DNA of 64,000 nt from an uncultured Bacilli bacterium (GTDB lineage Bacteria > Bacillota_I > Bacilli_A > RF39 > UBA660). This document shows, in pieces, positions 188 through 39,095 of this stretch (position 1 is its first letter; each line of letters starts with the position of its first letter). Position numbers and translations under genes: made by a program. Location of the stretch: positions 23,951 to 87,950 of the forward strand of contig CANRPY010000002.1 of assembly GCA_947632595.1 (NCBI GenBank), read 5' to 3'. The notes below the pieces were generated by a model. It was not told the origin of the DNA. It ran no database searches and saw only the letters and a list, made by a program, of their open reading frames with translations.

Positions 188-262
188 TGGAGCGAACGAG
201 GGGAATTGAACCCCCATCACAGCCTTGGCAAGGCCGTATTCTAACCATTGAACCACGTTCGC
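188..262 (-). tRNA. tRNA-Gly (anticodon GCC)
   Basis: Reverse complement reads GCGAACGTGGTTCAATGGTTAGAATACGGCCTTGCCAAGGCTG...TTCAATTCCCCTCGTTCGCTCCA. Acceptor stem GCGAACG/CGTTCGC, anticodon loop TTGCCAA, T-arm GGTTCAATTCC, encoded CCA. Confidence 0.9.
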
Positions 263-271
263 ATAAAAAAA

Positions 272-345
272 TGGAGGGGCCTACCGGATTTGAACCGGTG
301 ATCAGGGTGTTGCAGACCCACGCCTTACCACTTGGCTAAAGCCCC
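272..345 (-). tRNA. tRNA-Cys (anticodon GCA)
   Basis: Reverse complement reads GGGGCTTTAGCCAAGTGGTAAGGCGTGGGTCTGCAACACCC...GGTTCAAATCCGGTAGGCCCCTCCA. Matches the Bacillus-type tRNA-Cys D-arm AGCCAAGTGGTAAGGC, anticodon loop CTGCAAC, encoded CCA. Confidence 0.85.
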
Positions 346-2681: not shown

Positions 2682-4280
2682 TTATTTTTCAATTCGATCA
2701 ATATATTCTTCATATGGAATTTGACGATCGATAATGGTTCCATCTTCTTGAATTTCGATTACTCGATTGGCAACTGTACTATTTAATTCATAGTCACGGG
2801 TTGTAAAGATGATTTCTCCTTGGAAATTACATAACCCTTTATTTAGAGATGTAATACTTTCCAAATCTAAGTGATTGGTTGGTTCATCTAAGATTAAGAA
2901 GTTTGGTTCTTCTAACATCATTTTGGATAACATACATCTTGCTTTTTCTCCTCCGGATAAGACATTTACTTTTTTGAAAACATCGTCTCCTGAGAATAAC
3001 ATTCTTCCTAAGAAACCTCTTAGGACTGTCTCATCTTTAATATCATAGAAATTACCAATCCATTCCATAATATTTTTTTCACTTTGGAAATACTCTGTAT
3101 TATCTTGTGGTAAATAGCCAGGATTCATGGTTTTGCCCCACTCTATGGTTCCTTTATCATATTTTTCTTTTCCTATTAAAATATTAAATAGTGTTGTTTT
3201 TACCATGTCGTCTTTTGCAAGAATACAAATCTTATCTCCTTTTAATACCGTGAAAGATACTTTATCTAATACTTTTTTACCATCTACTATTTTGGTTAAG
3301 TTTTCTACTTTTAAGATTTCTTTTCCTGCTGGCTTTTCTATTTTAAAATCAATATATGGATATTTTCTACTACTTGGTATAATTTCATCTAATTCTATTT
3401 TTTCTAACATTTTCTTTCTAGAAGTTGCTTGTTTAGACTTAGAGGCATTGGCAGAGAATCTTGCGATAAATGCTTGTAATTCTTTTATTTTCTCTTCTTT
3501 TTTCTTATTAGATTCTTTCATTTGTCTTTGTAATAATTCACTTGATTCATACCAGAAATCATAGTTTCCAATGTATAATTTAATTTTTGAATAATCAATA
3601 TCACATATATGTGTACATACTTTATTTAAGAAATGTCTATCGTGTGAAACAATGATTACGGTGTTATTAAAGTTAATTAGGAATTCTTCTAACCAACGAA
3701 TGGCTTCTAAGTCTAAGGAGTTTGTTGGTTCATCTAAAAGTAAGATATCTGGATTTCCAAATAAACTTTGAGCAAGGAGTACTTTAACTCTTAATTTTAC
3801 AGGAATTTCTTTCATCAACATATAGTGATTTTCTTCTGGAACTCCTAGGTTATTTAGTAATTGTGCTGCATCTGGTTCTGCATTCCAACCATCTAGTTCC
3901 ATGAATTCTGCTTCTAGGTTTGCAAGTTTCATACCATCTTCTTCAGAAAATTCTGTTTGTTGATACATCTTATCTTTTTCTTCCATGATTTCGTATAATT
4001 TGCTGTTCCCCATAATGACAACATCAATCACTCTTTTTTCTTCAAATTGATAGTGGTCTTGTTTTAAGAAAGAGATTCTTTCTCCTTTGGATACGGTAAT
4101 TTCTCCTGTTGTTGTTTCTAATTCTCCACTTAATAGTTTTAAGAAAGTAGATTTTCCAGAACCATTTGCTCCAATTAGTCCATAACAGTTTCCATTTGTA
4201 AATTTTAAATTTACATCTTCAAATAAGGTTCTCTTTCCAAATTTCAAACTTACATTGTTTACTTGTATCATTTGCTTCAC
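2682..4280 (-). CDS. ABC-F family ATPase (two NBDs, no TMD). NBD1 signature and NBD2 Walker A/H-loop are degenerate
   Basis: NBD1 Walker A GANGSGKST. NBD2 signature LSGGEKARC and Walker B LILDEPTNHLD. Inter-domain linker of ~70 aa. 532 aa. Confidence 0.8.
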   Translation of the reverse strand: MKQMIQVNNVSLKFGKRTLFEDVNLKFTNGNCYGLIGANGSGKSTFLKLLSGELETTTGEITVSKGERISFLKQDHYQFEEKRVIDVVIMGNSKLYEIMEEKDKMYQQTEFSEEDGMKLANLEAEFMELDGWNAEPDAAQLLNNLGVPEENHYMLMKEIPVKLRVKVLLAQSLFGNPDILLLDEPTNSLDLEAIRWLEEFLINFNNTVIIVSHDRHFLNKVCTHICDIDYSKIKLYIGNYDFWYESSELLQRQMKESNKKKEEKIKELQAFIARFSANASKSKQATSRKKMLEKIELDEIIPSSRKYPYIDFKIEKPAGKEILKVENLTKIVDGKKVLDKVSFTVLKGDKICILAKDDMVKTTLFNILIGKEKYDKGTIEWGKTMNPGYLPQDNTEYFQSEKNIMEWIGNFYDIKDETVLRGFLGRMLFSGDDVFKKVNVLSGGEKARCMLSKMMLEEPNFLILDEPTNHLDLESITSLNKGLCNFQGEIIFTTRDYELNSTVANRVIEIQEDGTIIDRQIPYEEYIDRIEK

Positions 4281-4364: not shown

Positions 4365-5036
4365 TTATCCAATCTTTTTGACTAGCGTTTTTATAGAATC
4401 TTGTCCTTTTAATAATTGTTTCATATAACTACTACTGGACTCATCATTATCTTTTAATCTTAGGATTTCTCTCATTTTATTTATGGTTTCTGATTGTTCA
4501 TTGGATTTATGCATATCTTTTATGATGAGTTCTGTTATTAATAAGTGAAGTTGATAGGCATTTAGTTTGTGTAGTTCTTCTCTTCCTACCTGTTCTAGGA
4601 TACTATAATCTGCTGGATTTACTACATAGAGTTCTCCATTATATAGAGTGTATCCTGGTATTAAGTTATTTAATAAGACTTTTTTATCACTTACTGTTTC
4701 AACGTCTTTTTCTAATTCTCGAATACTATCTATTACTTCTATACTTGGAGTAGTGATCAATCTTTTTCCTGCTCCTTTATTGGATACTAGTTTCATTGTA
4801 TATCCTTTAAAGGCATTATTATAAAATAAGAGATGTTTTGGTAATAAGATTCTACCAGTAGAAATTTCTGTTAAGTATTCTGCTGTTTCAAGGGGCATTC
4901 CTACTTCTTGTTCTTTAAAGACTCTAAGTGCACAATTCTTATAACGATAGGTATCTCCTACTTTCATTCCTGGTGCAAACTTCAATCTTTTTAGTTTTGC
5001 CAGGTCTACTGGCCTATTATCTATTCGATATCCCAT
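4365..5036 (-). CDS. Hypothetical protein
   Basis: 223-aa ORF with no confident motif. Weak kinase-like beta3 pattern ALRVFK. Confidence 0.4.
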   Translation of the reverse strand: MGYRIDNRPVDLAKLKRLKFAPGMKVGDTYRYKNCALRVFKEQEVGMPLETAEYLTEISTGRILLPKHLLFYNNAFKGYTMKLVSNKGAGKRLITTPSIEVIDSIRELEKDVETVSDKKVLLNNLIPGYTLYNGELYVVNPADYSILEQVGREELHKLNAYQLHLLITELIIKDMHKSNEQSETINKMREILRLKDNDESSSSYMKQLLKGQDSIKTLVKKIG

Positions 5037-5059
5037 ATTTCTTCATCCTACCCTCGCTT

Positions 5060-5647
5060 TTATTTTCTATAAAAGTTCGAAATAAATTTTGCAAATTCAT
5101 ATAAGATGATAGAACTCTTATTTATGGCGAAACTTTTTCCCATTGCTTTTCCACCGATTGTTAATGATGCAATGACTGCAGCTACTACAAGACCTGTTAT
5201 GAATATATTCCAATGATAGGTCGTTGATAAGATTGCTGTGATGGTTGTTCCTGCAGCACCGGAAATAATTCCGCAAATATCTCCAATGACATCGCAACAG
5301 AAACTAGATACTTTATCGGCATTCTTTTTAAATTTTACAGCAACACTTGCTCCTTTTACTTTTCTTGAATTCATAGAATGGAAAATCGATTCTTCTGCTG
5401 TTGTTACGGATACTCCTATAATATCAAATAAAATACCTAGGACAATAAATAATAAAGTTACTATAATTCCTAACCATAATGGAAAATTCGGAATGGTCAT
5501 TTGTGATACAAAAGATAAGGAGAAAGAGATGGCAAAAGATATGATAACAATTGTTAGAATCCATTTCCAATTCACATGTTCTTTCTTTATCTTTTCTTTC
5601 TTTTTGGTTACTTCAATTAAATTTTTTAATTCATTATTTTTTTTCAT
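5060..5647 (-). CDS. Small 4-TM membrane protein; candidate OapA-like partner of the upstream large ncRNA
   Basis: 195 aa with four predicted TM helices (WILTIVIISFAISF, LWLGIIVTLLFIVLGILF, FCCDVIGDICGIISGAAG, IFITGLVVAAVIASLTIG). RBS GAGGGAAAA before the ATG. Lies 30 nt after the ncRNA terminator. Confidence 0.6.
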   Translation of the reverse strand: MKKNNELKNLIEVTKKKEKIKKEHVNWKWILTIVIISFAISFSLSFVSQMTIPNFPLWLGIIVTLLFIVLGILFDIIGVSVTTAEESIFHSMNSRKVKGASVAVKFKKNADKVSSFCCDVIGDICGIISGAAGTTITAILSTTYHWNIFITGLVVAAVIASLTIGGKAMGKSFAINKSSIILYEFAKFISNFYRK

Positions 5648-5675
5648 TTTTCCCTCACACTTTAATTATATCAAA

Positions 5676-6302
5676 AAAAAAGTAGATTCTCTACTTTTAT
5701 CCTTCTTGAAATTGTTTGGCTTTCTTTATAGTAAACTTTGAGCCTTAGGTCAAGTAGGATTTCCCTAATTCTTACAAACTCGTTACCAAGCTTGCGGTTC
5801 CCCTTTACTAGAATTAATATGGTGTTACCATCCCATACGACTTGATTACCACTTAGTGCCCACTGCAATCCTATAATGAAATACACTCTAGGAGATTTCC
5901 TCTCCAACACTTTATCTCTAATTCTTTTTTGCAAGAATAATTTCAAAATGCAATACCTATTCATAAGTGGCCGCTTATCAATAGTTTGTTCATTTTTCCC
6001 AATATTCTCACTCAAGACAGGCTACACTGCACATAGCTTGCGCCACAATACAGGTTCATCCCTAATTCGTAACAAGTCATCAGTTGTTGTTCGTATAGAT
6101 TTGTCACAAGGTTAGGTCTCCGCGAAAGTTGGGTCGGGATCCATATGCCATTATGGGTCGCCCAAAATTCTCTCTCCAGCATCCACCCCAAACTGGGCGT
6201 AAGAAGCAGACACCAAAGGTTTCATCGATATGCCCTTTAACGACTTTTTACATTCGTCTTCCAAATAAAGTAATTGACTAGAATAATGTGCCATCAATTA
6301 CG
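5676..6302 (-). ncRNA. Large (~620 nt) GC-enriched structured non-coding RNA of unassigned family; OLE-like RNA is one candidate
   Basis: Bounded by a consensus SigA promoter and a U9 intrinsic terminator. Local GC ~40-50% against a ~28% background. Contains many short self-complementary segments, e.g. CGCCCA...TGGGCG and GGAGA-ggaaa-TCTCC. The only ORF inside uses a TTG start, has no RBS and uses rare CGG/AGG codons. Confidence 0.55.
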
Positions 6303-6308
6303 TGTTAC

Positions 6309-6337
6309 ATTATAACATATTTTTAAAAATATGTCAA
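6309..6337 (-). promoter_or_regulatory. Consensus SigA promoter driving the large ncRNA
   Basis: Minus strand TTGACA-17nt-TATAAT, a perfect consensus, directly after the histidine kinase stop codon. Confidence 0.7.
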
Positions 6338-6347
6338 ATGTGTAAAG

Positions 6348-8834
6348 CTACTTTTCTCTTCCTAAGAATTTTCTTAGGATATCCATCATTTGTTTTGTAA
6401 GTTCTATTAATTCATCAAAAGATGATTTAATTTCTTCTACGTTTTCTTCTTTACTTGCTAATTCATGTTTATAAGCAAGATCTGCAAGCTTCATCATACC
6501 CATGTATTTTGCATCACTTTTTAGAGCATGTGCTACTACACAGTAATTTTTCATATCATTTGCTTCTAGATATTTCTTTAAGTCTGCCATTTTATTATCA
6601 GAGTCATCTAATACATCTACTGCTGTATCTGCATAAATATCCATATCCATTAATGTCTCTAATGCTTTATTAATATCTAATCCAAAAGATTCTAGGTATT
6701 CTCTACTATGAACAGGATTTCCTTGGAAAGATGATGTGATTTCTTCTTGTTTTTCTTCCACAACTTCTTCCTCTATTTTCTTTTCTTCCACAGGTTCTGT
6801 GGATTTTTCCTGTGGTTCATTATCCCAATCCAATTCTTCGATTTCTTCTTGTTTTTCTGCTACTTGTTGAGGCATTGTTTCCGGTGTTGTTTCTGGAACG
6901 GTTACTGGAGTTGTTTCTGGTTTTAGTGGTTCTCCATTTCCAGATGTTTCTATTGGTGCAGGAGGAATTGTTGTGTTTTTCTTATTTCCTAAGAATTTTA
7001 CTAATAGTTCATCTAATAAAATCTTATCAATTGGTTTAGATAGATAATCATCAAATCCACATTCCATATATTTTTCTTTCATACCTGAAATTGCATTTGC
7101 GGTTAAGGCTATTGTTGGTACGTGGAATCCTACAATATCTTTTAAGTGTTTAATGGTTTCTACTCCTGTCATACCAGGCATTTGATCATCTAGTAAGATT
7201 AAATCATAATGACGTCCACTTGCTATTTTATCAATACATTCTTTACCACTTGTTGCGAAATCTAGTTCTAATTGATAATTCTTTAAGAATCTGCTTGCTA
7301 CTTTTAAGTTAACATTATTATCATCTACAACTAATATTTTTTCTCCTTGTCCTGTAAACGTTCCTCTTGCAACTAATGGATCAATTTGTTCAATATCTTC
7401 TGCTGTTTTATGAACAATTTTTTGTTTTAGTTTAATTGTAAATGTAGATCCTACTCCATATTTACTTTCTACTTTAATTTCTCCACCCATTAAATCGACA
7501 AGATTCTTTGTTAAGGCAAGTCCTAGACCAGTTCCTTCAATATTTACATTTTGTTTCATATCTAATCTTGAGAATTTAGAGAATAGTTTCTTTAAGTCTT
7601 CTTCTTTAATACCGATACCAGAGTCACTTACAGATACTACTAAGTAACCAACTTCATCATCTATTTTCTCATAGTTCATGGCTAGTTTTACGTATCCTTC
7701 TTTGGTATATTTTACTGAGTTTGTTAATAAGTTAACGATGATTTGTTTAATTCTTACACAGTCTCCATATAAAACAGGTGGCATATTTTTATCATATTCA
7801 TGAATAAACTCTAGTTGTCTACTTCCAATTCTTCCTTCTGTCATGGTTACTAAATATTTATATACTTTATTGACTGCATATTCTACATCAATAATTTCAA
7901 ATTTTTCGGATTCAATTTTAGAGATATCTAATACTTCGTTTACGAGTTCTAGTAAGGTATCTGCTGCACTTACAATGTCTTCTACATCATCTTTTATTTG
8001 ACTATCTAGATTTTGTTCTAGTAATCCTTGGGAGAAACCTAATATTGCATTTAATGGGGTTCTTAACTCGTGTGACATACTAGATAAGAATTCTGATTTG
8101 GCGTTAGATGCTTTAATAGCGTCGTTTCTTGCGACTTTAATCTCTTCTATCATTTCTAGGTCTGGGTTTTCAATTGTAAATACTGAGAAGTACATAATAC
8201 TTATTGAATATGCTAAGGCTGCTGTTACCAGTAGGATTTGAGGATTAAATAATTGGACTAAGGCTGCAAGACCTCCAAATACAATGACTCCAACAATTGG
8301 AAATGTTTTTCTTGCTGCTAAATTTCTTACTCTTACGATTAATAAAGCAATCCATAGGAAAATACTAATTCCACAAATAATATATGCGATAGAAGTTGCT
8401 GGTCCATAGGAATACATAACATTGGTTCCTCTTGTATAAATACTTACTGGAGCTATGATAATTGCAAGAGCACATAATATGGTAATTCCTATATATATAA
8501 ATCTTGTTTTCTTATATTGGTCCAATTTTTCTTCGTTATTTAAACTATTATTGGTAATAATTACGGCATAGTTTGTATAGATAATACAGAAGATTGCTAA
8601 GGATATTAAATAGGCTTTTGCGAAAATCATGGTAAAGATGCTATCTGGTACTTGAAAAGCGGATACAATGGATGCAATATCTAGTATTACACTAAAAAAA
8701 CCTACTATAATTAAGTTTCTAAAGATATAGTTTTCTGCACTAGGCATTTTTTTCTTTACAAAAAAAATCCCTCCAATTAACACGATGTAAAATAGGGATA
8801 TTATTTGAAAAAACGTATTTGCGTATAATACCAT
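6348..8834 (-). CDS. Hybrid sensor histidine kinase (multi-TM sensor, HisKA, HATPase_c, REC, Hpt)
   Basis: H-box SHELRTPLNAILGF. G-box region GTGLGLAL. Receiver ILVVDDNNVNLKV...LDDQMPGMTG. C-terminal Hpt HALKSDAKYMGM. 828 aa with ~6 N-terminal TM helices. Confidence 0.85.
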   Translation of the reverse strand: MVLYANTFFQIISLFYIVLIGGIFFVKKKMPSAENYIFRNLIIVGFFSVILDIASIVSAFQVPDSIFTMIFAKAYLISLAIFCIIYTNYAVIITNNSLNNEEKLDQYKKTRFIYIGITILCALAIIIAPVSIYTRGTNVMYSYGPATSIAYIICGISIFLWIALLIVRVRNLAARKTFPIVGVIVFGGLAALVQLFNPQILLVTAALAYSISIMYFSVFTIENPDLEMIEEIKVARNDAIKASNAKSEFLSSMSHELRTPLNAILGFSQGLLEQNLDSQIKDDVEDIVSAADTLLELVNEVLDISKIESEKFEIIDVEYAVNKVYKYLVTMTEGRIGSRQLEFIHEYDKNMPPVLYGDCVRIKQIIVNLLTNSVKYTKEGYVKLAMNYEKIDDEVGYLVVSVSDSGIGIKEEDLKKLFSKFSRLDMKQNVNIEGTGLGLALTKNLVDLMGGEIKVESKYGVGSTFTIKLKQKIVHKTAEDIEQIDPLVARGTFTGQGEKILVVDDNNVNLKVASRFLKNYQLELDFATSGKECIDKIASGRHYDLILLDDQMPGMTGVETIKHLKDIVGFHVPTIALTANAISGMKEKYMECGFDDYLSKPIDKILLDELLVKFLGNKKNTTIPPAPIETSGNGEPLKPETTPVTVPETTPETMPQQVAEKQEEIEELDWDNEPQEKSTEPVEEKKIEEEVVEEKQEEITSSFQGNPVHSREYLESFGLDINKALETLMDMDIYADTAVDVLDDSDNKMADLKKYLEANDMKNYCVVAHALKSDAKYMGMMKLADLAYKHELASKEENVEEIKSSFDELIELTKQMMDILRKFLGREK

Positions 8835-26652: not shown

Positions 26653-27336
26653 TTACCTATAAAAGTTGTTATCCATATAAAGCTGTTCTACTAAGGTATC
26701 TCCTCCAATTGGATAGAAGTTTCCTTTTAGATTTTCTTTCATCAAAGGCATTTCTCCTTTTGGCAATTCATTTGCTCCATTTTTTAACTTCTTTTGGTAG
26801 TCTTCAAATAATTCTTTAAATCTAGCATAGTGTACTACTTCTCTTTGCCTTAACCATAGTAATGGTCCTATGACATCAGGATCATCTGTTAAGTCAATTA
26901 AGTTTTCATACACTGCTCTTGCTTTTTGTTCTGCTGCCATATCTTCGGCTAGGTCGGCAAGAGGATCTCCTGTTGTTGCGAAGTAAGTTGCCGTAAAGGG
27001 TACGCCATTCGAGTCTGTTGGGTATAGGGCTTTTGCATGTTCTGCGTAGTGAGCATCAAGTCCTGCTTCTTTTAATTCTTCTAGGGTTGCATCTTTCATT
27101 AATTGATAGACCATAGTCTCAAGCATTTCCACATGTCCTAATTCTTCGGTTGCGATATCATTTAATAAGGCTTTTCCTTTGTTATCTGGCATCGTCATTC
27201 TCTGATTCATATAACGAAGTGCCGCTGCTAACTCCCCATTGGATCCTCCATATTGTGTTACGATATATTTTGCCATTCTTAAATCCTTTTTTTTAATATT
27301 TACGGGATATTGTAATCGTTTTTGATAACTAAACAT
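26653..27336 (-). CDS. cotJC: Manganese catalase family protein (CotJC-like)
   Basis: YGGSNGELAAALRYMNQRMTM...EELGHVEMLETMV is the Mn-catalase ferritin-like motif. Overlaps the upstream cotJB-like gene by 8 nt. Confidence 0.75.
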   Translation of the reverse strand: MFSYQKRLQYPVNIKKKDLRMAKYIVTQYGGSNGELAAALRYMNQRMTMPDNKGKALLNDIATEELGHVEMLETMVYQLMKDATLEELKEAGLDAHYAEHAKALYPTDSNGVPFTATYFATTGDPLADLAEDMAAEQKARAVYENLIDLTDDPDVIGPLLWLRQREVVHYARFKELFEDYQKKLKNGANELPKGEMPLMKENLKGNFYPIGGDTLVEQLYMDNNFYR

Positions 27337-27796
27337 TTCTTCCCTCCCATGGCCATGTGGATGATACCCAGTTGAAGGATGTCATTTCACCATTTATGGT
27401 TAGTGGCCCATATTTTTTCTCATACTCTTCTACTAATCGATTTGCTTTTTGTTCATAATCTCTAAATAGTAGAAACATGCTTTGATCTTCTGGATGAAGA
27501 TCTAGGTATAGATTTAACTCGTGTGCAGCAAAGGCAATGGCAGATAATTCATAAAGGCATTTTTCTTGTTCTGTTTGGGGAGTAAGGGTTGCTGGTTGAT
27601 AGTTCTTATAAGGACTATATAGTTCTTTCCATAAATTTCCTTTTAGGAAAGCTTCGGTTGGATTGAATAAGTTATTTTCTGGAAGTGGCATGGGAGATGG
27701 ATAAAAATTCGTTGGTTGGTATAGGTTTTCATTTCTTATCCAATCATAGTTTATCTTATTATTCATAAATTCTCCTTTCTTATTAATGTATTCCAT
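27329..27796 (-). CDS. cotJB: Spore coat protein CotJA-CotJB fusion
   Basis: The N-terminal half, NLFNPTEAFLKGNLWKELYSPY, is CotJA-like. The C-terminal half, ELNLYLDLHPEDQSMF...YGPLT, is CotJB-like. Confidence 0.6.
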   Translation of the reverse strand: MEYINKKGEFMNNKINYDWIRNENLYQPTNFYPSPMPLPENNLFNPTEAFLKGNLWKELYSPYKNYQPATLTPQTEQEKCLYELSAIAFAAHELNLYLDLHPEDQSMFLLFRDYEQKANRLVEEYEKKYGPLTINGEMTSFNWVSSTWPWEGRNV

Positions 27797-27854
27797 CTTC
27801 CTTTTTCTATTAGGGCATTGGCCTACTTTTTTCGGTAAAATCTATAAATAATAC

Positions 27855-27883
27855 TTGTCAAATGTTGGATTTACTGATAGAAT
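27855..27883 (+). promoter_or_regulatory. SigA-type promoter for tRNA-His
   Basis: TTGTCA-17nt-TAGAAT, ~20 nt upstream of the tRNA 5' end. Confidence 0.55.
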
Positions 27884-27902
27884 ATATTTGTATTTTTGAA
27901 AT

Positions 27903-27979
27903 GGCGCCATTGGTGAAGTGGTTAACACGCTAGTTTGTGGCACTAGTATGCAAGAGTTCGATTCTCTTATGACGCCCCA
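27903..27979 (+). tRNA. tRNA-His (anticodon GTG) with G-1
   Basis: G-GCGCCAT TG GTGAAGTGGTTAACAC...anticodon loop TTGTGGC...T-arm GTTCGATTC...ATGACGC C CCA. The extra 5' G is diagnostic for His. One C-A mismatch in the acceptor stem. Confidence 0.85.
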
Positions 27980-28017
27980 TTTTTGAAAATTGTCGATGAA
28001 TTTCGACTTACAGATAG

Positions 28018-28045
28018 ACTCAATGATTGTTATTGAGTTTTTTTG
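28018..28045 (+). terminator. Intrinsic terminator after tRNA-His
   Basis: ACTCAAT-gattgtt-ATTGAGT hairpin followed by TTTTTTT. Confidence 0.65.
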
Positions 28046-28313
28046 TGCCTCAAAAAGCATTCGTTGTTCCCTATTTATTCCAATATTAAGGTTCGGGGAG
28101 AAAAAGAAAAGAACTTGTAAAAGCTCAATTTTTATGTTATTCTGTATGTAGCAAGAAATCTTGCGTAAAATAAAAAAGGGAACATTCAGTTTTTCAGAGT
28201 TGAATGTCTACCCAAATTTAATTGTGTTAGGCACTTATTCTAGCGAATGAGTGTTATTTTTTTATAACTACTATCATAAAAGACCAATTCTTAGAATTGA
28301 TCTTTTTTGTTTT

Positions 28314-30067: not shown

Positions 30068-32365
30068 TTATTCTTCTATTTTTTTAATCATTTGTTTTGC
30101 GGATGCATTTGGTACCATAGTCTCTGTTGCGATTGCGATCATTTGATCTAAGAAGATATCCATATTGTCTTTATATAACAATAGTACCTTTTTTAGTGTT
30201 TCTCTAATTTCTTCTTCTGGAATTCCTAAGAAAGAAGAGATTGCTTCTATTTCAAAATATTTTCCATCTACATATCCTAGACGAAGAGAAATAATGATGG
30301 CTTCTTTGACACTTAATTTTCCAAGCATTTTCTCAAAGGAAGGAGTACGAAGAAGCTCTAACATTTTTTCACAATCTTCTTTTACAATGGTTCCTGCTGT
30401 CTCTTGTTTTTGGATTGGTTTAGGAGAATCTACTGGCACCTTTTGTTCTTCTGTTGGAGGCACTGGAGATACAGGAGTAGCTGGTGTTGGAGTCTCTGCT
30501 TGCGCTACTACATTTTCTACTGAAGAGATTTTACGCGTTGTTCTTCTCTTACTAGGTGGTCTTTTTCCCGTAATTTCTTGTAGAATTCTTTTCATCTTTG
30601 GAACAAGAGATGTATAAAATCTTGTTTGTTCTTCTTTGGTCATTTTTGAAGATACAGGATGCTCTAGGTCATCTCCATAACGAAGTCTTACTAATTCTCT
30701 ATCTTCTGGGGATAGTCTTGTTAACATCTCATCTACTTGTTCTTTTGTATAATCACTAAAATATTGATAAATGGATTTTAATCTTGCCATATTTTCTTTT
30801 TCCTTCTTTCTTGCTCTTTTTGATTGGGTAACCCCTGCTTCTTTTAAAAAGGCTTTATTGGAACCTTCGGAATTTCTATATGCTGCCCGATATTCTTTGA
30901 CATTTTGTAGAGATTGTTTTGGGTTATCGGTATAGATTGCAAAGTCATCTACTTTTTTCTTGCTTCTTAGTTTTCTTAATGCTTTGGATTCTATTTGTCG
31001 AATTCTTTCTCTTGTTACATTAAAATATTTACTTACTTCTTCTAAGGTTCTTGTTACATTGTCTTCTAATCCATATCGTAGGGTTAAGACTTGTTTTTCT
31101 CTTAACGTTAGACAAGAATCTAGATATCTTTGTAGTTCTTCTGGTAGGCTGTTTCCTACTGCAACATCTTCTGGAGAATCTTTATCGGATGGGATAAAGT
31201 GTTCTAACTCGGTATCTTCGTCATCTCCTACAAAGGAATTAATACTAATAGTATCTTGTTGAGAACTATATAATTTTTTTGCTTGCTTTAAGGAGATGTG
31301 CATTTCATTGGCTACTTCTGATAAGTTAGGTTCTCTGCCAAGTTTTCCTTCTAGTTTTTGCCAGGTTTTTCGAAACTCTCCTATTTTTTCTACTACATGA
31401 ACAGGAAGTCTTACATTTCTTCCTTTGTCTGCGATTGCTCTTGTGATTGATTGGCGAATCCAGGTAATTGCATAGGTTGAGAATTTAAATCCTTTCGTTG
31501 GATCAAACCTCTCTACTGCTTTCATAAGACCAAGGTTCCCTTCTTGAATTAAATCCATAAAGGATAGGCCTCTTCCTACATATCTTTTCGCAACGGTTAC
31601 CACTAGTCGGAGATTACTCTGAATAAATAAATTTCTTGCTTCTAAATTTCCTTCTAATATTTTATGAAATAGTGCTTGTTCTTCTTCTCGATTTAGTAAT
31701 TTATATTTTCCAATTTCTCGTAGATAGTCTCCTACGATACTACTAGACATTTCTTGTTCGATAATGGTTGTTTGCTGTTCTTCTTCCTCTTCCTCTTCTT
31801 TTTCTTTTTTCTTAATATCATGTAGTATCGCATAAGCATCTATTAAAGAAACTAGGAAAGTGTCTGATAAATACTCTTCTAAAATATCTTCTTCGTAATA
31901 CTTTTGATATTTTTTAAATTCTTTTTCCACTAATTTATCAAATAGACTAGACTCTTTTAATAGAGATAACATATGATCTGGATCTAGTGGATATTGATAG
32001 ACTGTTAAAAATTCATTTAGGGATTGTAGTTTTTTCTCGAAGTCTTTTTCTCGATTCATTGTTAAGTAATTTTCTACAATCCTTGTTCTATCTTTTGGTT
32101 TTCTTAGGCAATCATGGAAGAATGAAGAGAATGCTTCATTTAGTTTTTCTTCCATGAGTTTTTCAAATGAGTTTGCTTCCTTATATTCTTTTTGTTGTTT
32201 TGCAATTTCTTCCCGGAGTCTCTTTCTTAAGGTATCTACTTCTAGGGCAAACCTTTTTGCTCTCTCTTCTATTTGGTTAATGAGAGGTGTTAAAAGGCGC
32301 CATAAGTCTTCTGGATTTTGTTGCATTGTTCCATTCATTGTTGCTTCCAAGGCAAAACCTCCCAT
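30068..32365 (-). CDS. Sigma-70 family RNA polymerase sigma factor (RpoD-like core) with ~200-aa N-terminal and ~290-aa C-terminal extensions
   Basis: Region 2 [43 protein letters not shown]. Region 3 [13 protein letters not shown]. Region 4 [18 protein letters not shown]...[27 protein letters not shown]. Two more region-4-like HTH units: [16 protein letters not shown]... and [43 protein letters not shown]. Confidence 0.8.
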
Positions 32366-37107: not shown

Positions 37108-38856
37108 TTATTCCACGGTTACTGACTTTGCTAAGTTTCTTGGTTTATCAATATCTAGTCCTCTTAATTTTGCTGTATAGTATCCAATTAATTGTAATGT
37201 TGGGACTACCAACAATGGTTCAAAATAAGAACTTGTTTTTGGAACAATATAACGAAATCCATGATTTGGAATTTCTTCCGTATTGGTTATTGTATAGATG
37301 AAGGCATCTCTTGATTTAACTTCCATGACATTGGATTCTGTTTTATCAGCAATAGCTGGGTCTGTAATGATTGCGAAGACAGGAACTCCTTTTTTGATCA
37401 GTGAGATTGTTCCATGTTTTAACTCTCCTGCTTGGAAGGCTTCACTATGAATGTATGAGACTTCTTTTAGTTTTAAGCTTCCTTCTAGGCACATTGCATA
37501 GTCAATTCCTCTTCCAATAAAGAAGGCATCTTCTGCTTTATACATACTTTTCGCAACGTCTAAGAAGATTTCTTTCTCATCTAATATTTTTTGTAATAGA
37601 ATTGGGATTTGTTTCATTTCTTTTAAGGCATCTTCATCTTTTACTGTTTTCATTACAATTAAAGATAATAAAGCAGCTTGTAGAATATAAGCTTTTGTCG
37701 TTGCGACTGCGACTTCTACTCCTGCTCCTATTAGAAGAGTCTTATCACATTCTCTTGCAATGGTAGAAGTTTCTGTATTTACAATACCTAGTGTTTCTAC
37801 TCCATTTTCTTTTGCTTTTCGCATCGCTGCAATGGTATCGGCTGTCTCTCCTGATTGAGAGATTACAATCACTAATGTTTTGGGACGATAAAGCACTGTT
37901 TTATAACGATATTCTGATGCACATTCTACGTAACACTTCTTTTTACATTTTTCTTCGATTAAACTTGCTCCTACTAATCCTACATACATAGCGGATCCAC
38001 AAGCAACAATGTGAATCTCATCATATTGCGATAAATCTGGTAAGTCTTTGTCTTCGTATCTTGAGATTAAGTTTCTAAGAACGGTAGGTTCTTCCATTAT
38101 CTCTTTTAACATAAAGTGTTCATATCCTGATTTACTTGCAGAATCTTCTTTTAAATTGGATTCTAGAATTTCTTTTTCTACTTCTTTTTCTTCATAAAAG
38201 ACTTGTACTTTATTAGGATCTAGTACGGCAATTTCTCCTTCTTTTAGGAGACTATATCGATTGGTTTCTTGTATCATGGCAGCAATATCACTTGCGATAT
38301 AATTTTCTTGTTCTCCATAGCCTATCATTAAAGGAGAATCTTTTCTAATTGCATATAATTTGTCTTTTCCTTCCAATAGAATTCCAAAGGCATAAGATCC
38401 TTTTAATCTTTTTGTTGCTTTAGTAATTGCCTCTATCGGATTATCTTCATAGTATTCATTGATTAGAGCACAAGCAACTTCTGTATCTGTTTCACTTTTT
38501 AAAGATACCCCTTTTGCTTCTAATTCTTTTCTTAGTTCTCTTGCATTTTCAATAATTCCATTATGAACAAGAGTTACTCTCCCTACTTTATGAGGGTGTG
38601 CATTTACTTCATTTGCTTCTCCATGAGTTGCCCATCTCGTATGACCAATTCCTAGGGTTGCAGTAATACTTTTTTCTTCTTGTAATTTCTTTTCTAGTTC
38701 GACTATTTTTCCCACACTCTTTATGATTTGCGTTTCTTCTTCATTTTCTAGAGCAATTCCACTCGAATCATACCCTCTATATTCTAGTTTTTTTAAACCG
38801 TTTATTAAAAATTCTTTCGGATGTTTTTTTCCAACATATCCTACTATTCCACACAT
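37108..38856 (-). CDS. glmS: Glutamine--fructose-6-phosphate aminotransferase
   Basis: N-terminal MCGIVGY nucleophile. Two SIS domains. C-terminal KSVTVE. 582 aa. Confidence 0.95.
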   Translation of the reverse strand: MCGIVGYVGKKHPKEFLINGLKKLEYRGYDSSGIALENEEETQIIKSVGKIVELEKKLQEEKSITATLGIGHTRWATHGEANEVNAHPHKVGRVTLVHNGIIENARELRKELEAKGVSLKSETDTEVACALINEYYEDNPIEAITKATKRLKGSYAFGILLEGKDKLYAIRKDSPLMIGYGEQENYIASDIAAMIQETNRYSLLKEGEIAVLDPNKVQVFYEEKEVEKEILESNLKEDSASKSGYEHFMLKEIMEEPTVLRNLISRYEDKDLPDLSQYDEIHIVACGSAMYVGLVGASLIEEKCKKKCYVECASEYRYKTVLYRPKTLVIVISQSGETADTIAAMRKAKENGVETLGIVNTETSTIARECDKTLLIGAGVEVAVATTKAYILQAALLSLIVMKTVKDEDALKEMKQIPILLQKILDEKEIFLDVAKSMYKAEDAFFIGRGIDYAMCLEGSLKLKEVSYIHSEAFQAGELKHGTISLIKKGVPVFAIITDPAIADKTESNVMEVKSRDAFIYTITNTEEIPNHGFRYIVPKTSSYFEPLLVVPTLQLIGYYTAKLRGLDIDKPRNLAKSVTVE

Positions 38857-38874: not shown

Positions 38875-39020
38875 AAAACATATAGTGTTGATATATCATT
38901 TGTTGTAATCTTGATTTTACTTTTTGTAATATATCTTACGAATCACTTACTCCGTAGTAGTACCCGCCGAATCTTTCGATACCCTACTATCCTCGTCAAC
39001 CTATTATGGTCCTGGCGCTA
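38875..39020 (-). ncRNA. glmS ribozyme (GlcN6P-sensing self-cleaving riboswitch)
   Basis: Minus strand reads A^GCGCCAGGACC...GACGAGGA...AGAUUCGGCGGGU, which are the core glmS ribozyme motifs, in the 5' leader of glmS. Confidence 0.8.
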
Positions 39021-39095
39021 AATGAAGATACTCCTTTCTCTTTCTCTCATCTTATTAAACATTATACCGAAAAATAAAAAAGATGACAAATTCTT

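Follow-up and report, generated by a model that had tools for sequence, protein, structure and literature searches.

Which gene product is specified by the minus strand between a hybrid histidine kinase gene and the gene of a 195-aa protein, where the genome of an uncultured gut bacterium carries a G+C-rich segment framed by a promoter and a terminator-like hairpin? A sequence-only reading of the window, by which we mean the whole stretch of 64,000 nucleotides that was analysed, had proposed a noncoding transcript of about 620 nt, an OLE RNA with oapA downstream, and had kept an unclassified large noncoding RNA as its fallback. We carried out the Rfam comparison that it had recommended, with the whole window against all 4227 families at curated gathering thresholds. 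OLE RNA (RF01071) matched at 6310..5700 on the minus strand with 405.9 bits (gathering score, 50), the E value of 8.8e-116 placing the match far beyond chance, and the alignment spans positions 1-616 of the 616 in the model and is not truncated. RNase P, tmRNA, SRP, ROOL, GOLLD, HEARO, and raiA gave no match in the region among these families, and the other Rfam matches across the window were three tRNAs and one glmS ribozyme, nothing else. We conclude, with a probability of about 0.97, that the region is an ole gene with oapA next to it downstream, and that the RNA it specifies is an OLE (ornate, large, extremophilic) RNA of the full-length type. The host, which is AT-rich, is probably a spore-forming anaerobe of the gut that belongs to the Bacillota. 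The fallback is rejected on the combined grounds of the Rfam match, which covers the whole model, the conservation and covariation of the RNA in homologous loci, the lack of conservation of the internal open reading frame (ORF), and the results obtained for the OapA protein. The features of the locus are as follows.

6309..6337, minus strand: sigma-70-type promoter, TTGACA-17-TATAAT, score 12/12
5700..6310, minus strand: OLE RNA of the full-length type (RF01071), inferred transcript ~6302..5673
5671..6015, minus strand: internal ORF with a TTG start, 114 aa, rejected as a gene
5673..5695, minus strand: terminator-like hairpin AGTAGA-GAA-TCTACT with a T-run, between OLE and oapA, extendable with A-U pairs
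5665..5693, minus strand: second, weaker promoter-like site, TAGAGA-17-TATAAT with an upstream TG, score 10/12
5060..5656, minus strand: oapA including its ribosome-binding site (RBS, GAGGGA, 5656-5651), ATG at 5647, ORF 5647..5060, 195 aa

The base composition of the RNA stands out, with 39.3% G+C versus 30.9% for the window, a value at the 99.97th percentile among 611-nt windows, and with peaks of 48.5% over 200 nt and 55% over 100 nt. The local peaks of about 50% that had been claimed are therefore real, whereas the background is 31% and not the ~28% given with them. No stretch of the window is richer in G+C than OLE, but the cotJ stretch at 26931-27541 equals it, so that G+C content alone would not single out the RNA.

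Projection of the Rfam structure onto the window copy retained both partners of 155 of the 159 consensus pairs, and 136 of these 155 (88%) are canonical or G·U, the remaining 19 being noncanonical. The P11 hairpin is absent from this copy, which accounts for all four lost pairs. With helix names taken from PMC12265935, PMC11332333, PMC7936274, and PMC9723947, the structural elements, all on the minus strand, are the following.

6277-6265 with 5915-5904: P3/P3.1 (OLE nt 34-46 with 396-407), 12 bp with one bulged U
6258-6239: P4, with an A-rich loop (UAAAAA)
6219-6173: P5/5.1, GCCCA loop at 6198-6194
6170-6124: P6/6.1, AUGGCA loop at 6151-6146
6116-6061: P7, long (OLE nt 195-250)
6053-6027: P8 (OLE nt 258-284), GCAA loop
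6018-5922: P9, long arm (OLE nt 293-389), palindromic GGCC tip at 5972-5969
5902-5892: P10
5881-5721: P12-P15 domain
5838-5817: P13, the OapB-site hairpin, GUAA loop at 5828-5825

Several of these elements correspond to sites with published functions. The elements of dimerisation are intact by sequence, namely, the A-rich loop of P4, the complementary loops of P5.1 and P6.1, and the palindromic tip of P9, and the loop motifs GCCCA, AAUGGCAU (P6/6.1), UAAAAA, and GGCC are all present. OapB binds within the P12.2/P13/P14/P15 junction, at a P13 hairpin that is capped by a GNRA tetraloop and contains a bulged nucleotide (PMC7936274), and the window copy reads GUAUGG-GA-UG[GUAA]CA-CCAUAU in P13, i.e., a GNRA loop with a bulge of apparently 2 nt. 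OapC recognises a K-turn built from J4a/5 and J5/6 (PMC9723947); the bulged strand of this K-turn, AUC-GAU-GAA, is identical to the consensus, and facing it is a GAGAGAGA run, with which several registers are possible. The distal part of P7 (6061-6116) contains UCUAUACG...CUGAUGA, a near variant of a recurring element, CCUAUAS-[short hairpin]-YUGAYGGA, which we found in 14 of 66 OLE copies from both clades (L008, L010, L016, L063, L067, L086, and others) and which could not be assigned to a known motif such as the k-turn. Two of the self-complementary segments cited in the sequence-only reading have to be amended. CGCCCA and TGGGCG both occur but are not partners, the former being the loop of P5.1 and the latter part of the P6 stem, and a pairing between them lies outside the covariation-supported fold. 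The palindrome GCAAGCTTGC is not present, the actual sequence at 5794-5787 being CAAGCTTG, one base off.

The window copy has P7, P8, a complete P9, and the P13 site, and by its sequence we therefore assign it to the full-length type defined by Fernando and Breaker in 2024 (PMC11332333), and to neither of the two variants described in the same work. OLE variant 2, commonly found in the RF39 clade, lacks P7 and P8 entirely, whereas the window copy has both, and paired. Variant 1, commonly found in the TANB77 clade, has a shortened P7-P9 region and lacks an OapB site at the P13 tip (PMC11332333), whereas the window copy has a full-length P9 and an intact P13 GNRA hairpin. Its ecological setting resembles that of both variants, which occur in uncultured gut Bacillota known from metagenome-assembled genomes (MAGs) alone. 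With full-length OLE RNAs, it shares the length class, helices P3-P10 and P12-P15, the invariant nucleotides, the P4, P5.1, P6.1, and P9 elements, the GNRA loop and bulge of P13, and an oapA gene immediately downstream on the same strand. It differs from the characterised examples, those of Halalkalibacterium halodurans, Clostridium acetobutylicum, and C. botulinum, in lacking P11 and the usual neighbouring genes, and its host is an AT-rich, uncultured gut bacterium and no extremophile. The bulge of P13 is a single nucleotide in H. halodurans, compared to the apparent 2 nt here. The H. halodurans ole gene lies inside a long polycistronic transcript (PMC12265935), whereas the window ole gene has its own promoter and a terminator-like hairpin before oapA.

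Relatives of the 195-aa protein are numerous (more than 5,000 in a collection clustered at 90%, forming 1,092 clusters at 50% identity) and almost all unnamed. A profile of 54 diverse members retrieved the best 80 loci from species-representative genomes, H. halodurans not being among these, and the nearest loci come from gut-sample MAGs titled Bacilli, Bacillota, or Mollicutes. In a taxonomically spread set of 20 loci, including Clostridium oceanicum, Rfam detected a full-length OLE immediately before the OapA gene and in its orientation in 18, with 355 to 540 bits, a range in the middle of which the 406 bits of the window copy fall. A local nhmmer profile extended this result to 73 of the 80 best loci, each with OLE directly upstream of the OapA gene.

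We aligned 66 full-length OLE sequences with MAFFT, independently of any structure, and counted the pairs of the Rfam structure together with those of the P3/P3.1 helix, which is known from the literature and stands outside the Rfam structure line. Paired cells amounted to 84.8%, compared to 38 to 46% when the 3′ partners were slid by one to three columns, and changes on both sides, i.e., compensatory ones, occurred in 133 of 167 pairs. The covariation score of 0.522 contrasts with 0.11 to 0.17 for the slid versions and was reached by none of 500 shuffles, and P3/P3.1 by itself covaries in 11 of its 12 pairs. There are 112 positions that are invariant across the 66 sequences and a further ~80 that are at least 90% conserved, and the window copy carries all of them; in the literature, strictly conserved nucleotides make up ~25% of OLE. 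The tip of P9 is palindromic in all 62 relatives that keep it, with 24 different sequences, and such a variable but always palindromic tip fits the published self-kissing dimer contact. The conservation and covariation anticipated for homologous loci are thus borne out.

The alignment also revealed where the family varies (P11 occupies columns 611-632, P9 columns 468-540, and J5/6 columns 142-161). No Bacilli-clade copy has P11, which the copies from Clostridia and Oscillospiraceae do have. L027, L037, L050, and L053 lack the distal half of P9 and with it the dimerisation loop, and five Oscillospiraceae-type copies (L041, L049, L057, L076, and L079) carry an extra G+C-rich hairpin between P5 and P6.

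Three other explanations of the region can be weighed against these data. That it encodes a small protein, its RNA-like features being incidental, would be suggested by the 114-codon ORF at 5671..6015, which does exist, with the TTG start noted before, and by gene callers, which on metagenome contigs predict an ORF of 47 aa within the region. We regard this explanation as extremely improbable: the 114-codon ORF matches no Pfam or NCBIfam family and has no RBS upstream of its TTG, the latter as already stated in the sequence-only reading, and the aligned frame in relatives stays open for a median of just 10 codons. Moreover, the TTG itself belongs to a conserved RNA motif, CUUGAGUG, found in 64 of 66 copies, and conservation tracks base pairing rather than codons. 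We therefore rejected the ORF as a coding gene on account of its unconserved frame, the lack of a family match, and the lack of an RBS, and the noncoding reading holds. Just as little credence can be given to a different large RNA (ROOL, GOLLD, raiA, HEARO, RNase P, tmRNA, SRP, a group II intron, or an unclassified noncoding RNA), which has size and G+C content in its favor, nothing more, and is opposed by the fact that OLE alone matches here among the 4227 families, over its entire model.

It could also be asked whether the window copy is a decaying, nonfunctional relic of an OLE RNA, as the missing P11 and the 19 noncanonical pairs might be taken to indicate. The loss of P11 is, however, common to the whole clade, all 112 invariant positions are kept, the promoter is perfect, and oapA is intact, its invariant residues included. 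The locus recurs in identical form on contigs of several independent metagenome assemblies, the score is mid-range for the family, and we consider decay very improbable. We retain the interpretation that the region is an ordinary, full-length OLE RNA gene, and none of our results speaks against that identity.

The promoter of the ole gene comprises TTGACA at 6337-6332, a 17-nt spacer ending in TG, and TATAAT at 6314-6309. It begins 10 nt past the TAG stop (6350-6348) of the hybrid histidine kinase, in agreement with what had been read from the sequence, and it is the sole perfect (12/12) site within 5000-7000. At the other end, the hairpin at 5695-5681 runs into a T-run that ends at 5673, with nine T, the first of which closes the stem, so that this part of the earlier description also stands. 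Its predicted folding energy is -10.8 kcal/mol (z = -2.8 versus shuffles), and with just two G-C pairs in its stem, it escaped a scan for consensus terminators. A transcript that starts 7 nt past the -10 box and stops where the T-run ends would be ~630 nt long, close to the ~620 nt first proposed. The RBS of oapA follows 16 nt beyond the T-run, not 30 nt as had been stated, and 25 nt separate the T-run from the ATG. The weaker promoter-like site at 5693-5665 overlaps the terminator hairpin and ends 9 nt before the RBS of oapA, and by its sequence and position it could be oapA's own promoter.

A promoter scoring at least 10/12 and ending 10 to 20 nt before the invariant G19 was found in 42 of the 66 homologous loci. 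Loci with such a near-consensus promoter are almost all gut "Bacilli/Mollicutes" MAGs nearest to the window, and most Clostridia and Oscillospiraceae copies are without one. A hairpin with a T-run occurs in the OLE-oapA spacer of ~20 Bacilli-clade relatives (including L007, L008, L011, L016, L019, L021, L025, L029, L033, and L036), with unrelated stem sequences. Given that the positions of promoter and terminator are conserved across the clade, OLE in these gut "Bacilli" MAGs is predicted to be transcribed as a unit of its own.

The 195-aa protein had no match in Pfam, NCBIfam, or PDB sequences, even when a 54-sequence profile was used with E values up to 10. The libraries that we searched contain no curated OapA family, and we therefore tested OapA membership by motif, linkage, and fold. 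The protein carries the DxxxD motif as DVIGD (residues 119-123), D119, G122, and D123 being invariant in 54 diverse homologues. The AlphaFold2 model (pLDDT, 93; pTM, 0.81) contains four long helices (residues 27-54, 57-83, 110-144, and 148-176); hydropathy strongly supports three of them, the DxxxD-bearing helix being less hydrophobic, and the model is consistent with four transmembrane (TM) segments. The top four Foldseek matches of the model are CorB and CorC structures (7M1T, 7M1U, and 7CFF; probability, 0.98 to 1.00), with CorB 7M1U as the best structural match and everything else being noise, which points to a CNNM-like fold without CBS or CorC domains. In comparison with MpfA, CorB, and CorC, the CNNM Mg2+ transporters, OapA has the DxxxD motif and is devoid of the CBS pair and of the CorC domain; CorB has three TM helices, versus four in OapA, and the protein yielded no significant match to Pfam CNNM. 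The published proposal is that OLE RNA supplies functions of these CNNM-family domains that OapA lacks. The occurrence of mpfA is known from published work to be anticorrelated with that of OLE.

With known OapA proteins, the window protein has in common the four long helices, the DxxxD motif, the CNNM-like fold, and the position of its gene immediately 3′ of ole, and it shares just ~40 to 45% sequence identity with the Clostridium-type OapA proteins. The tie to characterised OapA runs through published criteria (position, motif, TM segments, and fold) and not through a direct alignment with H. halodurans. In every feature that can be tested from sequence, the 195-aa protein is what is expected of an OapA, and the proposal of an OLE RNA with oapA downstream is upheld on the protein side as well as by the full-model match of the RNA.

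Six of the "Bacilli" MAG loci (L009, L013, L020, L023, L054, and L056; 23 to 27% G+C) have a clear OapA homologue (~47 to 60% identity, at ~3001-3600 in each locus), with no OLE detected within 3 kb upstream of it by unfiltered nhmmer (E ≤ 10); in L009, ORFs fill the space upstream of the homologue. In these loci, OLE has either moved elsewhere in the genome or been lost, and loss would be unusual given the published tight correlation between OLE and OapA. These still more AT-rich relatives hint that the partnership between OLE and OapA can be dissolved.

Only ole and oapA are syntenic among the relatives. Upstream lies the ORF of the hybrid histidine kinase (6348..8834, minus strand), with HisKA, HATPase_c, Response_reg, and Hpt domains. 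Immediately after oapA comes a 223-aa ORF (4365-5036, minus strand), which has no Pfam or NCBIfam match, gives one weak match in L007, is otherwise absent beside the oapA genes of relatives, and is probably unrelated to the OLE system. An ABC-F gene follows oapA in the three closest relatives only. We examined the hybrid histidine kinase, the 223-aa protein, the ABC-F protein, and the other flanking genes as conserved partners of OLE and discarded them, as they are not syntenic. None of the classic neighbours of ole occurs within six genes of the locus or among 35 ORFs, about half of those in the window, scanned with Pfam, and the sole isoprenoid gene found, a polyprenyl synthetase gene, is 37 kb away. 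No gene for OapB, OapC, or bS21 was detected among the 20 window ORFs scanned for them, which says little, given that these genes are normally unlinked.

As for the host, a cotJC-like gene (Mn catalase family) and a cotJB gene at 26653-27796 (minus strand) suggest a spore former, and their presence is consistent with the published correlation between OLE and sporulation genes. Among the other contents of the window, the glmS ribozyme (RF00234, 62 bits) at 38880-39030 on the minus strand lies directly upstream of a 582-aa ORF (37108-38856) whose N terminus resembles GlmS, a standard ribozyme-gene layout. The Rfam scan placed tRNA genes at 191-262 (minus), 275-345 (minus), and 27904-27976 (plus), and spurious ORFs at 41-256 and 27842-28060 overlap two of them. 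A 765-aa sigma-70-family protein (30068-32365, minus strand) has its regions 1.2-4 confined to residues 211-467, with an N-terminal extension of ~210 aa and a C-terminal extension of ~300 aa, both without a family match.

The peculiarities of the Bacilli clade raise the possibility of a clade-specific, streamlined OLE ribonucleoprotein that has lost P11, forms an autonomous unit, is uncoupled from the isoprenoid/DNA-repair/translation cluster, and maybe works with OapA alone. The clade-wide absence of P11, set against its presence in Clostridia and Oscillospiraceae, speaks for such a subtype, as do the promoter and terminator conserved in the Bacilli clade only, the synteny restricted to ole-oapA with no classic neighbours within six genes, and the lack of OapB and OapC among the 20 ORFs scanned, two proteins reported to be missing in some gut clades (PMC11332333). 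However, the elements of the OapB site (GNRA loop, bulge, and four-way junction) and the bulged strand of the k-turn are kept, and the retention of these RNA sites argues that the OapB and OapC partners are still in use. Furthermore, the search for oapB and oapC was confined to ORFs of the window, and the presence of P7 and P8 sets the RNA apart from the published variant 2. We view a subtype of this kind as possible but on the whole doubtful, and it would refine the main explanation, a full-length OLE RNA followed by oapA, rather than replace it.

Our working model of how this ole-oapA locus operates combines its anatomy with the published work on the H. halodurans and Clostridium OLE RNAs, from which dimerisation, membrane anchoring, and the roles in stress are known. 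Judging from the layout, the strong promoter, of the housekeeping-sigma type, would start the RNA ~8 nt into the Rfam match, and the weak, A-U-rich terminator would stop most transcripts after ~630 nt, an arrangement expected to produce a large excess of the RNA over oapA mRNA. oapA would be expressed by read-through, from the overlapping weak promoter, or from both. By analogy with the characterised systems, two OLE RNAs may dimerise via the A-rich loops of P4, the kissing loops of P5.1 and P6.1, and the palindromic tip of P9, and OapA, a dimeric, CNNM-like, putative transporter of divalent cations, may anchor the RNA in the membrane, which recent cryo-EM work suggests that OLE spans as a dimer. 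The resulting particle would help the cell to cope with Mg2+, cold, alcohol, and carbon-source stress. On the same analogy, the most likely role of OLE is to sense or regulate the transport of divalent cations by OapA, the protein probably being the ion-transport component and the RNA the sensor or regulator.

The weak terminator that is conserved between ole and oapA may fix the ratio of RNA to OapA or adjust it conditionally, and it also enters a more speculative suggestion, which we advance as rather unlikely, namely, that the gut "Bacilli" clade has a distinct, streamlined ole-oapA cassette with P11 lost, a strong promoter, no gene cluster, a ratio-setting terminator, and perhaps no OapB or OapC. 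These details of the clade (the lack of P11, the own promoter and terminator, and the loss of the neighbourhood) are minor and partly new within the literature that we searched.

The OLE RNA of the window is an ordinary member of an already catalogued family, and its identification is routine annotation and no discovery. It matters little beyond correct annotation, the copy being a standard full-length member from a lineage already surveyed in the literature. OLE is among the most intriguing bacterial RNAs without a known biochemical function, and the window copy leaves that unchanged. What the clade does offer is a compact two-gene cassette of ~1.3 kb, with a consensus promoter, a terminator before oapA, and no conserved neighbours, which could be a minimal construct for heterologous expression, and the clade provides a natural setting for asking whether OLE can do without P11 and the surrounding operon.
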